A stretch of 14,683 nucleotides of DNA from Candidatus Hermodarchaeota archaeon (GCA_048885865.1 JBHLLF010000056.1:1-14683), one strand, 5' to 3'; shown: positions 10,720-14,651, numbered from the stretch's first letter. Made by a program: numbers and translations. Notes: a model not told the origin generated them from the letters alone.

Positions 10720-11491
10720 TTTTTCTCACGCTCACACATAAAGTGCTGAGGTGTTATCTCCCGGCAACAACCTCTAGCAAATCATGGCATCTCACGCCTA
10801 AATATCTTGTCAGAAATGCTCAATCAATCATTTGAGCGAAAGAGATGATTGAGTCTCCAAAACGCAGGAAAGCCGCCCAAGTCTTAGCTCCAACAGAGTT
10901 CGATCTTTCTCGTTCAGTCAAGCTACTTTTTGTGTATCTTGTACCATCGAACCAGTACTTCGACACATAGCCTAACCGTCCGCCAACCTGTTCTTGTACT
11001 GTCTTTATCGCTCAACCACTTTCGATTGGGTTCATGGTCTTGCTCAGTACGCAGAGCCCAGACGCTATTGGTAGGCGCCTCCTGAGCGGCTTAACTATAG
11101 TAAAGAAGCTTCCGCTAATAAAGTCTGAGATGTCTGCACAAATCTGAGTTTAGGCACTAGAATTACTCCATTTCGCAAATATCTGAACATTGATAGGATG
11201 GACATGTAAGTTCTTGATCGATTTTGATGAAGGTCTTCAAACCGTGCATCAATGGAATTCCTGTCCTGAAGAGAATGGGCACGGTGAAGGAAGTCGAATC
11301 TCTGGTAAAGGAAGTTGCACCAAGAAAAAGACACAAGCCCTCAAAGATGAAGGCTTGAACCAAGTCGGTGCATGCATCCGAAGATATCCACTTAATCAGC
11401 TGATGATTCCATCCAACAATGATTGCCATGTTTCGGTATCTGAAAGATTATATGCTGGATAGAAACCAGCTTCATTACATATCCTGGATGA

Positions 11492-11911
11492 ATGCGAATT
11501 ATGCCTCCGAAAGACATGAACATCATCGTGTTTGGCTGTATGCAGTGTATGTACGCCGCAGCGGACCTGGCAGGCACGATGAAGCTGCAGTACGATGTGG
11601 CGGCGAGAATCATCCGAATGCCGTGCACCGCGAGGCTCGATATCAACTTCATCCTGAAGGCGCTGCAGGAGGGGGCTGACGGCGTGCTGGTGGTGGGTTG
11701 TCATCCTGGAGACTGCGCGTACAAGACCGGAAATCTGGGGGCAGAGAGAAGAGTCCGTTTTGCTAGAAAGCTTGTTGGTCAATTGGGCCTAAATGAAGAC
11801 CGCGTAAAGATGGTGTTCGTGAGTGCCGCTGAGGGGGACAAGTTCGCCACTGAGGTCAACAAGTTCGCAGAGGAAATCAGGAAGATAGGACCGAATCCTA
11901 TCAGGCTTTAG
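11492..11911 (+). CDS. mvhD: Hydrogenase iron-sulfur subunit MvhD/FlpD ([2Fe-2S])
   Basis: FGCMQCMYAAADLAG, MPCTARLD, GADGVLVVGCHPGDCAY, GN..AERR, RVKMVFVSAAEG.KF, GPNP. The true start may be a few codons later (MPPKD). Confidence 0.93.
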   Translation: MRIMPPKDMNIIVFGCMQCMYAAADLAGTMKLQYDVAARIIRMPCTARLDINFILKALQEGADGVLVVGCHPGDCAYKTGNLGAERRVRFARKLVGQLGLNEDRVKMVFVSAAEGDKFATEVNKFAEEIRKIGPNPIRL

Positions 11912-11958
11912 CAGTACCATTTTAATTCATGAAGTTAATCCTTCCATGCGTGCTGAAT

Positions 11959-12486
11959 ATGCCAGAAACCGCTCTTCTTGTGATAGATATGCAATTGGGG
12001 AATTTCCAGGGGGAAAATCCCATCGAAAACGGAAGAGATCTGTTGTATAATGTGAATGCTTTAATCAACAAGGCACGAAAGGCCAATGTTTCAGTATTCT
12101 ACATAATGAACAAAGGTTCTGAAGGAGACCCAGATGAGCCTGGCACTGAAGGTTGGGAAATCCATCCTGAAATCACACCCCTTGAGGATGAAATAATTGT
12201 CGAAAAGGCAACTCCTGATGCCTTCCATGAAACCACACTCAAGCAGAGACTGGAGGAGTTGGATGTTTCAAGATTGATTATGGCTGGTCTTCAGACCGAG
12301 TATTGCATTGACACAACATGTAGACGTGGGTCGCTACTTGGCTATGAGGTCGTTTTAGTGAGCGATGCACATGGTACTTGGGATAGTGAATTGTTGAGTG
12401 CAGAACAAATCATTGCACATCACAACAGAGTACTTGCAGGATGGTTTGTGACTCTGAATAAAACGGATCAGATTGCCTTTGGATGA
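11959..12486 (+). CDS. Isochorismatase-family cysteine hydrolase (array unit 1)
   Basis: ALLVIDMQ (Asp), VEKATPDAF (Lys), GLQTEYCIDTT (Cys) triad, LVSDAHGT. Likely start ATG 11959 (ORF track start 11929). Confidence 0.9.
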   Translation: MPETALLVIDMQLGNFQGENPIENGRDLLYNVNALINKARKANVSVFYIMNKGSEGDPDEPGTEGWEIHPEITPLEDEIIVEKATPDAFHETTLKQRLEELDVSRLIMAGLQTEYCIDTTCRRGSLLGYEVVLVSDAHGTWDSELLSAEQIIAHHNRVLAGWFVTLNKTDQIAFG

Positions 12487-12518
12487 CTCCAGCGCTCAAG
12501 ATTGTCGGACTTATGAAT

Positions 12519-12599
12519 GAGGGTGACAAATTCGCAGCTTAAATCAACAAGTTTGCTGAGGAGATTCGGAAGATAGGACCGAACCCGATTGGGCTCTAG
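12519..12599 (+). repeat. mvhD 3'-end copy 1 (degenerate direct repeat of 11831-11911)
   Basis: Translates EGDKFAA*INKFAEEIRKIGPNPIGL* versus mvhD EGDKFATEVNKFAEEIRKIGPNPIRL*; 64/81 nt identical by hand alignment, no gaps. Confidence 0.96.
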
Positions 12600-12641
12600 T
12601 GAGCAATAATTTTTGAGCGCAAATACTGAGATAGAGCTAGG

Positions 12642-13340
12642 ATGACGGGAGACTTCGACGACAATCAGGACTTAGAAGAATCTGAGTTGTATGAATCTGG
12701 CACTGATATGGAAAGAGTGAAGGCAGAATATAGAGCGTCAGCACGCAGACATGCCATACGCGGAGTGGTATTGCTATTCACCCCCATATTGACATTCATT
12801 ATTCCACTCTTGGCATCTGCAGAGTATTATGACCAAGTCTTCGTTGGAACCCTTGTAGGTACCATGGTTTTGGCGATAATTGGAGTTGTCTGGCTTGCTT
12901 TTTACGGAGTAGGAACAATGATACTACTCAGAGGCTTCGATATATTGGCAAGGGTTAGCCCATCTGAACCAGTACTCGCAAGACGCTATGCCATAGCAAA
13001 GGTCAATGACGTGTATCTACTTGCTCATGGTATAAGTGGACATCTCATCGCAGTTGCCTTTAGAGGAATGCCTTTTGCAGCATCAGATAATCGGATCAAG
13101 CTGCCTAGAATGTTCTATAGATGGGAGAGCAAGGTTGACATTGCGGGAGTAACTATGTTCCGCAGAGAAGGCACTTTTTCGGTCCCCATATCACAAGAGG
13201 AGTGCATTATTGGAGATGCTGTTCTTTATGGGTCTCCATACCAACCATCAAAATACAATTGGAATGTTCCAGAATTCACGAAAGAGCAGCTGATGGCAAT
13301 TATCGAATACATCAAAGAAGATGTGAACCGTCAATACTAG
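12642..13340 (+). CDS. Hypothetical membrane protein, about two TM helices (array unit 2)
   Basis: 232-aa ORF with acidic N-terminus, two hydrophobic stretches and a soluble C-terminal domain; fills the space between repeat copies 1 and 2. Confidence 0.75.
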   Translation: MTGDFDDNQDLEESELYESGTDMERVKAEYRASARRHAIRGVVLLFTPILTFIIPLLASAEYYDQVFVGTLVGTMVLAIIGVVWLAFYGVGTMILLRGFDILARVSPSEPVLARRYAIAKVNDVYLLAHGISGHLIAVAFRGMPFAASDNRIKLPRMFYRWESKVDIAGVTMFRREGTFSVPISQEECIIGDAVLYGSPYQPSKYNWNVPEFTKEQLMAIIEYIKEDVNRQY

Positions 13341-13421
13341 AGAATAATCGTGCATCTTAAACTCATTCAGCCTATCGGAATCTTCATTCATCTCTGGACT
13401 ATAAACTCTCAGAGGTGTCCA

Positions 13422-13502
13422 GAGAGAAACAAGTTTGCCGCAAATGTCAATAAGATTGCTGAGAAGACTAGGAAGATTGGCCCAAATCCTATTAGGCTAT
13501 AG
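13422..13502 (+). repeat. mvhD 3'-end copy 2
   Basis: Translates ERNKFAANVNKIAEKTRKIGPNPIRL*; 60/81 nt identical to 11831-11911, no gaps. Confidence 0.95.
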
Positions 13503-13521
13503 CCTCAACTAGATCTGCTGC

Positions 13522-13890
13522 CTAGACCCTTTCAAGTTGAGCTTTGACACTAGATCCACAGTAGCTGCATTCAGCTTCAAGAGGGCCACCCCACTTAATC
13601 TCCGTTCCAGAGAGCAAAGTTCCGCAATTGGAGCAGCGGACCGACTCACGACCTGTACTAATCTCAGTGATGTTTGACCCCATCTGGCCGCGGTTTCCTT
13701 TACCAATAACAAATGACGGAGTTTCTAACACAAACCTTCCGCGCATCCTAGGGCGGAGCATAAAGAACCTTAGTAGCACGATAGCTAACACAATGAAGAC
13801 AATTGGCATTAAGATGACGAAAACCTCTCCTAAATACTCGGAATCCCAAAACCCTATGACCAGCATAATGCTCTTCTCACACAAAACCAT
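13522..13890 (-). CDS. Small membrane-anchored zinc-ribbon protein (array unit 3)
   Basis: TM helix (VFVILMPIVFIVLAIVLLRFF) followed by basic residues; C-terminal CSNC..CSYC pairs. Confidence 0.72.
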   Translation of the reverse strand: MVLCEKSIMLVIGFWDSEYLGEVFVILMPIVFIVLAIVLLRFFMLRPRMRGRFVLETPSFVIGKGNRGQMGSNITEISTGRESVRCSNCGTLLSGTEIKWGGPLEAECSYCGSSVKAQLERV

Positions 13891-13933
13891 GTTTAATTAA
13901 ACGCATATTAAGATAAACATTCTCATCTGCCTC

Positions 13934-13996
13934 ACAGAGATAAACAGGTTCGCAGCTGAGATTCGAAAAATCGGTCCAAATCCTATCAGGCCCTAG
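13934..13996 (+). repeat. mvhD 3'-end copy 3
   Basis: Translates TEINRFAAEIRKIGPNPIRP*; 47/63 nt identical to 11849-11911, no gaps. Confidence 0.94.
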
Positions 13997-13999
13997 ATA

Positions 14000-14446
14000 T
14001 CAGAGTCGTTTCTTCATAGCATAGGCACGGACCTCAAATCCCGTCTTCTGATATAGATGCAGTGCCGCTTCAGCCTCAACTGGACAGTGGAGAAGCACCA
14101 TGTCAACACCCCCTTCTCTGAGAGCATCAAGCAGTCTTTCCAACAATAATCTACCCACACCCTGACCACGTGATGAGGAGTCAACAGCTAAAAGCTCTAT
14201 CTGAGCCACCTTGGAAGCATGCCATCGGTCCAAGACCGCAGTGGGAACTTCTTTGATGTATCCAAAGACAAAGCCAACAATAGAGTGTCCGTCCTCTGCA
14301 ACAAGAAGTCCATTTGGAAAAGCGGCATCGACTTGAAAGTCGGCCTCAGTAACGTCTGAGTCAAAGGAGGCGTATCTGTTTGCTAGAGGAATTATATCTT
14401 CAATGTCATGAGGTGTGGAGGGACGAATAATCATAGATGCATTCAT
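14000..14446 (-). CDS. GNAT-family N-acetyltransferase (array unit 4)
   Basis: IIRPSTPHD, LLAVDSSSRGQGVGRLLL (acetyl-CoA motif A), ALHLYQKTGFE. Confidence 0.92.
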   Translation of the reverse strand: MNASMIIRPSTPHDIEDIIPLANRYASFDSDVTEADFQVDAAFPNGLLVAEDGHSIVGFVFGYIKEVPTAVLDRWHASKVAQIELLAVDSSSRGQGVGRLLLERLLDALREGGVDMVLLHCPVEAEAALHLYQKTGFEVRAYAMKKRL

Positions 14447-14509
14447 GTGACGCTACTATTTTAATTGGTGTCCTAGTTGAAGTCTGATTATACTTGACGA
14501 CTTAAGTGT

Positions 14510-14651
14510 GAAGACCGCGTGAAGACAGTGTTTGCGAGAGCAGCCGAGGGACAAAAGCTTGCCGCTGAGGTTGAAAAGCTCGCCGACTATAGTTGTAGCA
14601 AAATTCTGTACCTGTAGTAAAGAAGATATAACTTGAGCAGATAGGCTATAG
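14510..14651 (+). repeat. mvhD 3'-end copy 4 (interrupted or decayed)
   Basis: 14510-14587 translates EDRVKTVFARAAEGQKLAAEVEKLAD versus mvhD EDRVKMVFVSAAEGDKFATEVNKFAE (58/78 nt to 11795-11872). Weaker remnants follow: AAGATA at 14623-14628 and AGGCTATAG at 14643-14651. Confidence 0.88.

Follow-up and report, generated by a model that had tools for sequence, protein, structure and literature searches.

Behind the working mvhD gene of a Thorarchaeota (Asgard) metagenome-assembled genome (G000; 117 contigs, 3.58 Mb, 87% completeness), partial copies of the end of this gene alternate with unrelated small genes. This raises the question of where the copies come from and why they differ from the gene that they adjoin. 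The DNA analyzed, here called the window, was an entire contig of 14,683 bases. We consider it probable that the three repeats closing the first units are stranded former ends of working mvhD genes, which stem from other alleles and were left behind by cassettes accreting at this site through recombination within mvhD sequence. The comparisons described below give good support to a divergence of the repeats as coding sequence.

The stand-alone mvhD gene has a conserved start (MPPKDMN) at position 11501, and its orthologs at approximately 100 Thorarchaeota loci are 85 to 99% identical at the amino acid level. Downstream of it are four single-gene units, and each of the first three is closed by a gapless copy of the mvhD end comprising the last 20 to 27 codons and the TAG (Table 1). 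The stop codon of the GNAT gene is located 3 nt beyond the TAG of copy 3. This gene is followed by copy 4, and the contig ends 97 nt further on. No mvhD-end repeats were detected elsewhere in the 3.58-Mb assembly. We do not think that the array is an assembly artifact, since the longest exact match between a copy and the gene, as read from the alignment, is about 17 bases, which we judge too short for an assembler to join strains.

Table 1. Features of the window at and around the mvhD array
Feature	Position	Strand	Remarks
Upstream motif CAAGTCGGTGCATGCA	11361-11376	+	~115 nt upstream of mvhD
Working mvhD/FlpD gene, stand-alone	11492-11911	+	139 codons; Pfam FlpD/MvhD, E=5e-47
Reference repeat (last ~27 codons of mvhD with TAG)	11830-11911	+	
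Cassette 1: isochorismatase-family gene with leader and trailer	11912-12517 (gene 11929-12486)	+	Pfam PF00857, E=2.5e-35
Copy 1 of the mvhD end, residues 114-139 and TAG	12518-12599	+	79% identity to the gene
Cassette 2 cargo: 232-aa predicted membrane protein (orf232)	12642-13340	+	No Pfam family
Copy 2 of the mvhD end, residues 114-139 and TAG	13421-13502	+	73% identity
Cassette 3 cargo: 122-aa zinc-ribbon protein	13522-13890	-	Weak Zn_ribbon matches
Copy 3 of the mvhD end, residues 120-139 and TAG	~13933-13996	+	65% identity over the gapless block 13915-13996
GNAT acetyltransferase gene, convergent to mvhD	14000-14446	-	Pfam PF00583, E=8e-17
Copy 4: internal fragment of mvhD lacking the terminal part, residues 102-127	14509-14586	+	76% identity

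MvhD-like sequences are also present at other places. The C-terminal part (1249-1629) of an HdrA-like ORF (1-1671) is a second, distant MvhD-like domain that is 32% identical to the stand-alone mvhD, and further MvhD paralogs were found on contigs C4, C19, and C75, none of which is accompanied by tail repeats. The upstream side of mvhD is variable too: it measures 0.77 kb here (10720-11491) and 5 kb in the nearest relative (L037:4966-10000), in which a methyltransferase/CdhD/ferredoxin fusion is encoded there along with further genes. An Rfam scan of the region gave no match.

The copies differ from mvhD in the manner of coding sequences. Copy 1 differs at 17 bases, of which 5, 0, and 12 fall on codon positions 1, 2, and 3, respectively; the corresponding numbers are 6, 1, and 14 for copy 2 and 2, 3, and 11 for copy 3. 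Pooled over the three copies (13/4/37), the skew toward position 3 is significant (chi-square, P=1e-7), and the even spread over codon positions that would have spoken against a coding history was not observed. Of the 17 differences in copy 1, 12 are synonymous codon changes (including GGG/GGT, AGG/CGG, and CCT/CCG). Four residues are changed (T120A, E121*, V122I, and R138G), E121* being an in-frame TAA at 12540-12542. RKIGPNPI and the final TAG are present in all three copies, with different codons for glycine (GGA, GGC, and GGT) and for arginine (CGG, AGG, and CGA). Both of these observations had been made in an earlier note on this DNA and were confirmed in the sequence, while its statement that the copies have no indels holds inside the aligned blocks and extends no further than these.

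Nei-Gojobori counts of synonymous and nonsynonymous differences (Sd/Nd) were 13/4, 13/8, and 11.5/4.5 for copies 1, 2, and 3, respectively (pooled, 37.5 versus 16.5). Thus, the silent sites are saturated (pS, 0.78 to 0.84), and the replacement sites are nearly untouched (pN, 0.065 to 0.13). As a null model, we used a neutral local duplicate beside a constrained gene, for which an average omega of about 0.5 is expected. In a binomial test, this value was rejected for each copy (P=0.0006, 0.011, and 0.002 for copies 1, 2, and 3) and for the pooled data (P=2.4e-7), and neutrality on both branches (omega=1) was rejected with P=3e-14. The binomial test is conservative, because saturation conceals silent changes.

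Furthermore, 7 of the 16 residue differences in copies 1 to 3 correspond to alleles of working mvhD in other Thorarchaeota. Among 93 distinct working mvhD genes, T120A occurs in 51, V122I in 41, K124R in 8, E127A in 3, and E128K in 2. Copy 1 has two novel and two allelic residue changes, copy 2 has five and two, copy 3 has one (L139P) and three, and copy 4 has six and three. The two, five, and one novel changes of copies 1, 2, and 3 imply fewer than one neutral silent change per copy, and 11 to 13 were observed; nearly all of the divergence therefore arose while both sequences were coding. The resident mvhD ranks 46th, 23rd, and 25th among 160 alleles by closeness to copies 1, 2, and 3, so the copies do not cluster with the gene of their own genome. 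The best match per copy among these 160 alleles still has 11 to 17 differences in 60 to 78 nt, which counts against the copies being stranded ends of other alleles. It is close to our rough estimate for the minimum of saturated comparisons, and it was rejected as a basis for naming donors. Since the silent sites are saturated, the donor lineage of any copy cannot be named; the proposal of the earlier note that these are former mvhD ends selected in different lineages is supported, with the limit that no copy is assignable to a named donor.

Together, these data make it highly improbable that the copies are local duplicates that arose within this genome and decayed neutrally beside a selected gene, as the earlier note had also argued, even though they adjoin the gene on the same strand and show some damage (the stop in copy 1 and eight novel residue changes in copies 1 to 3): the expected omega is rejected, saturated silent sites would predict a pN near pS, the novel changes leave room for less than one silent change per copy, and the resident gene is not the nearest allele.

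Movement between genomes was seen independently of the copies. At the DNA level, homology between the isochorismatase cassette and L090:10409-11000 starts from the base right after the mvhD stop, and in both genomes the cassette is located directly behind an intact mvhD. Between the two loci, the cassette has a dS of 0.40 and a third-position difference of 0.24, whereas hdrA, orf761, and the acyl-CoA dehydrogenase gene (acd) are saturated, with third-position differences of 0.56 to 0.62. The mvhD gene (dS, 1.8; third-position difference, 0.49) is saturated like the host genes. Judged by these silent-site distances, the comparison shows that in these distant genomes the cassettes have a much younger common ancestor than the host genes.

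The movement of units between genomes, which had been proposed from the window alone, is thus borne out for the isochorismatase cassette, but the moving unit is not simply cargo plus tail. Between the window and L090, the working tails differ at 20 of 78 positions and the stranded tails at 27 of 78, which does not match the low dS of the cargo. The parts in common are the cargo and the left edge of the tail only, and both tails are typical of each host's clade. Accordingly, a scheme in which each cassette brings its own coding tail fails for this cassette, the tails of which were not cotransferred with the cargo, and either later overwriting or a double crossover must be invoked. The restriction of the common parts to cargo and left edge suggests an exchange step in which two repeats serve as arms. 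Extending the L090 copy by eye to residue 80 found no support, which is limited to the part from residue ~107 onward. Movement is shown as well by the orf232 cassette: a homolog of orf232 (77% identical) stands directly behind an intact mvhD in L119, and the trailer and the left edge of the tail are also common to both loci.

One pair of loci shows the states before and after an insertion. L092 has the layout of L091 plus approximately 4.2 kb beginning at codon 17 of mvhD (L092:10040-14188). This insertion is lineage specific; it encodes a protein with a cytidine-deaminase domain, two HTH proteins, and an AbiV-type HEPN protein and includes an mvhD segment (codons 17 to 139) that looks foreign. 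The displaced copy in L092 corresponds in position to the working codons 17 to 139 of L091. It keeps the lineage signature DLFAKHIN and the L091 silent sites in codons 21 to 31, while the working mvhD of L092 has the foreign signature EKFAKEIN. The dS of the working mvhD was 0.58 to 2.15 in five close pairs of loci (L087/L089, L088/L082, L088/L150, L150/L082, and L091/L092), compared to 0.19 to 0.41 for a neighboring gene, a 3- to 6-fold excess indicating that the working gene itself turned over.

The excess of silent divergence in mvhD was seen even at collinear loci, for example L087/L089, without structural change. This would also be expected if no alleles were imported and mvhD mutated much faster than its neighbors, for instance by repeated breaks and repair, with purifying selection removing the replacements. 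We regard such an explanation as quite unlikely, since it does not account for stranded copies that stay coding-like without selection, for the foreign signature of the working gene in L092 beside a lineage-typical displaced copy, or for a cassette common to distant genomes.

Arrays of the same kind are found across the Thorarchaeota. We compared about 140 loci, 74 from genomes and 69 from metagenomes. Extra mvhD pieces downstream were found at 26 of the 59 genome loci with full-length mvhD, and remnants of the 3' part of the gene are more common than 5' remnants. The cargo of the arrays comprises toxin-antitoxin pairs, an AbiV-type HEPN protein, GNAT and isochorismatase genes, MFS transporters, HTH proteins, and a deaminase, whereas recombinase genes were absent from it. 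In 15 related loci, the GNAT gene is located 10 to 13 nt (31 nt in L085) past residue L139 of a working mvhD or a tail copy, and a tail copy also comes after the GNAT gene in L124 and L156. Homologs of the zinc-ribbon protein (43 to 46% amino acid identity) are encoded behind mvhD or a tail copy in L042, L045, L076, and L116.

Two contigs, L131 and L068, are identical except for a 342-nt deletion (L131, 4167-4508; L068, 4166), which begins 6 nt past the stop of a tail copy and takes out the start of the next cargo gene. The difference was considered as a cassette swap and turned out to be this deletion; it indicates that cassettes are eroding in present populations.

The pieces in the arrays are of two kinds. 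Short pieces have left edges scattered over residues 94 to 131, and about 20 pieces begin exactly at codon 17 (ATGCARTGYATG). The window's short copies were also considered as eroded remains of long copies (codons 17 to 139), an idea that is without support, since no significant residual similarity to longer mvhD copies was found in the spacers of the window. Compared with their own resident genes, the long copies have a dN of 0.009 to 0.07 and a dS of 0.24 to >1.8; in L091, for example, the long copy differs from the resident gene at 4, 1, and 53 sites of codon positions 1, 2, and 3.

Such low dN/dS values could reflect present function, with the copies selected in place as spare gene ends or as required recombination sites. 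Of 76 partial copies, 73 retain the stop, the majority of long copies have an open frame across their 123 codons, and the prevalence of 3' over 5' remnants would fit as well. However, copy 1 contains an in-frame stop, and no copy in the window has a start. In long copies, a few residues that are otherwise invariant have been replaced (C75I, G73R, D74G, and P134S), some have lost the start at codon 17 (ATA, CTG, AGG, or TCG is found there), and deletions erode the copies. Furthermore, a site required at the DNA level would conserve third positions. We compared the conservation profiles of 92 distinct working ends and 76 partial copies and found them to be alike: positions 1 and 2 are high, position 3 is at about 0.6 bit, and conservation ceases beyond the stop. 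TAG, TGA, and TAA are all used as stops, much as in working genes. The same profile with a free third position argues that the constraint acted on the protein and not on a DNA site. We regard selection in place as quite unlikely.

How the foreign DNA is joined to mvhD is a separate question, and here an alternative deserves more weight. The codon-17 edge recurs next to at least four unrelated kinds of left flank, three of them with named cargo. Among the flanks are a DUF3368-PIN toxin gene, which abuts with its stop codon, a vapBC pair on the minus strand, which abuts with its promoter side, and a different protein gene, again with its stop codon. At L059 (1440-4330), the promoter, the upstream motif, and mvhD codons 1 to 15 are present twice, and the 5' stub ends at codon 15, i.e., at the same breakpoint. 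The duplicated parts are 2.7 kb apart, and between them are a thioredoxin-reductase-like gene, a flavodoxin gene, and a gene for a PadR regulator. A sharp codon-17 edge beside unrelated flanks points to a site-specific cut or a recombinase, and plain homologous recombination does not explain it. The copies could thus have the origin proposed above and yet have been joined by a site-specific system acting at codons 15 to 18, either a TnpB/Cas12f-like nuclease that cuts mvhD and leads to homology-directed insertion or an unrecognized recombinase. We consider this possible, though it is not the explanation that we favor.

A candidate for such a nuclease is encoded at some loci. At 18 of 68 loci with enough upstream sequence, a protein of about 600 aa with a Cas12f1-like TNB domain is encoded directly upstream of mvhD on the same strand (e.g., L088:7886-9682, L092:8089-9843, and L091:2141-3895). 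Its presence in several genera, with 44 to 94% amino acid identity, suggests a long-term resident rather than a jumping insertion sequence. After the stop of this TnpB-like gene, the relatives have the motif CAAGTCGGTGCATGCA/CAGGTCGGTGCATGCA, which survives in the window and was found at 48 of 98 loci, mostly 60 to 200 nt upstream of mvhD. The motif has the 11-base word GGnTGCATGCA in common with mvhD codons 15 to 18, the recurrent breakpoint.

Several observations speak against the involvement of such a system. No TnpB-like gene was found in the G000 assembly (87% complete), and long-copy arrays are also present at loci without this gene (L055, L059, L060, and L061). The match between motif and breakpoint spans only 8 to 11 bases, and the following bases differ; a match of this length is too short for a TnpB guide. 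Moreover, the left edges of the short copies are scattered. A more specific proposal, which we put forward tentatively and hold to be rather unlikely, is that mvhD, a housekeeping redox gene, would serve as an integrase-free anchor for gene capture: a domesticated RNA-guided TnpB-like nuclease or another site-specific cutter would open codons 15 to 18, homology-directed repair would install foreign DNA together with a replacement for the rest of the gene, and cassettes and mvhD alleles would circulate family-wide.

For the stranded ends themselves, we favor the following scheme. In Thorarchaeota, mvhD is a hot spot that accretes small cassettes of accessory genes. Incoming DNA carrying mvhD sequence and cargo would recombine with mvhD in such a way that the gene remains whole, and the previously used 3' part would be pushed downstream, where it would begin to decay. 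The incoming mvhD piece would come from another lineage and would have evolved there as coding sequence, which would explain why the working gene and the stranded copies differ almost only at silent positions. Later events would add, swap, and delete cassettes, with the repeats as homology arms. Insertion would correspond to a single crossover of a circle and exchange to a double crossover, and joining is probably accomplished by the cell's own homologous recombination. The scheme also presupposes some route by which the DNA would travel between cells.

Searches for vehicles and enzymes gave negative results. Pieces of mvhD were not found on any circular intermediate, virus, or plasmid, which counts against the scheme, as does the lack of traces of longer copies in the spacers of the window; among viral contigs, none with an mvhD piece was detected. 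No autonomous element with an integrase recognizing these repeats was found in the arrays or in viral contigs; plasmids and unrecognized recombinases are possible. No tyrosine integrase of the IntI type was found near any array. G000 yielded no match to the tyrosine recombinase family PF00589. In the seven searched genomes for which both positions are known, PF00589 genes are on another contig or 246 kb from mvhD, and G017 (94% complete, with three copies) gave no PF00589 match at all. DNA folds of the working end and of copies 1 to 3, on one or both strands, gave z values of -1.6 to +0.6 relative to shuffled sequences and thus no attC-like hairpins. A tRNA scan of the window detected none; the window has no tRNA target of the tycheposon type, and its repeats are protein-coding sequence.

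PF00589 is sparse in the family as a whole: 23 of 61 genomes (G000 and 60 family genomes) gave a match, compared to 14 of 14 controls, and G000 lacks even a Xer-type recombinase.

In layout and logic, the mvhD arrays have much in common with known systems, although the defining features that were examined, namely, an integrase, attC hairpins, and a tRNA target, were not found. In the orphan-module arrays behind rhs, cdiA, and T6SS effector genes, displaced former 3' ends line up, and the homology between copies allows swapping. In those arrays, it is the variable toxic tip that is displaced, along with its immunity gene, whereas at mvhD the conserved part is displaced, and variability resides in the unrelated cargo between the copies.

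The accretion of the ICESt1/ICESt3 family and of CIMEs in the streptococcal fda gene (PMC7563491) is alike in that the target is the 3' end of a conserved protein gene, which is kept whole, and in that arrivals stack with direct repeats of the gene end between them, most units having no recombination genes of their own. In the window, too, direct repeats of the mvhD 3' end flank the units, and the gene is intact. The mvhD arrays differ from this family (PMC7563491) in that neither the genome nor the surroundings of any array yielded an integrase, the units are mostly single genes of 0.5 to 0.9 kb, the repeat comprises up to 123 codons and not ~27 bp, the repeats differ to saturation at silent sites, and the host belongs to the Asgard archaea.

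Integrons and CALINs, including archaeal ones, likewise consist of small, mostly single-gene cassettes closed by repeats at one fixed chromosomal site; their cargo is rich in toxin-antitoxin, acetyltransferase, and defense genes, and cassettes are common to several genomes (PMC9668308). The window corresponds to such a small-cassette array, with four single-gene units of ORF and repeat, sharing between genomes, and recurring cargo families. Unlike integrons and CALINs (PMC9668308), the mvhD arrays have no IntI, their repeats derive from a protein gene, are conserved only in the encoded residues, and do not fold as attC hairpins, and their cargo is present in both orientations. In the tycheposon islands of Prochlorococcus (bioRxiv 10.1101/2020.12.28.424599), newcomers also push older arrivals deeper into the island, but these elements use a tRNA target and tyrosine or serine recombinases, whereas mvhD is a protein gene and no recombinase was seen. 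Aloposons (PMC8813620) were considered as a relative and are unrelated, being giant-gene elements at tRNA sites. Literature searches found no published description of mvhD-anchored arrays.

Little is understood of how genes are acquired by Asgard archaea, the group nearest to eukaryotes among known organisms. The mvhD site is a clear and repeatable site of gene gain across the family, at which cassettes cross between distant genomes with no ordinary integrase. The stranded ends constitute a fossil record in which the working mvhD appears to have been overwritten repeatedly by foreign alleles. The search for the recombination machinery has a natural test bed in this site, and copies of the mvhD end provide a simple marker for freshly acquired genes in metagenomes.
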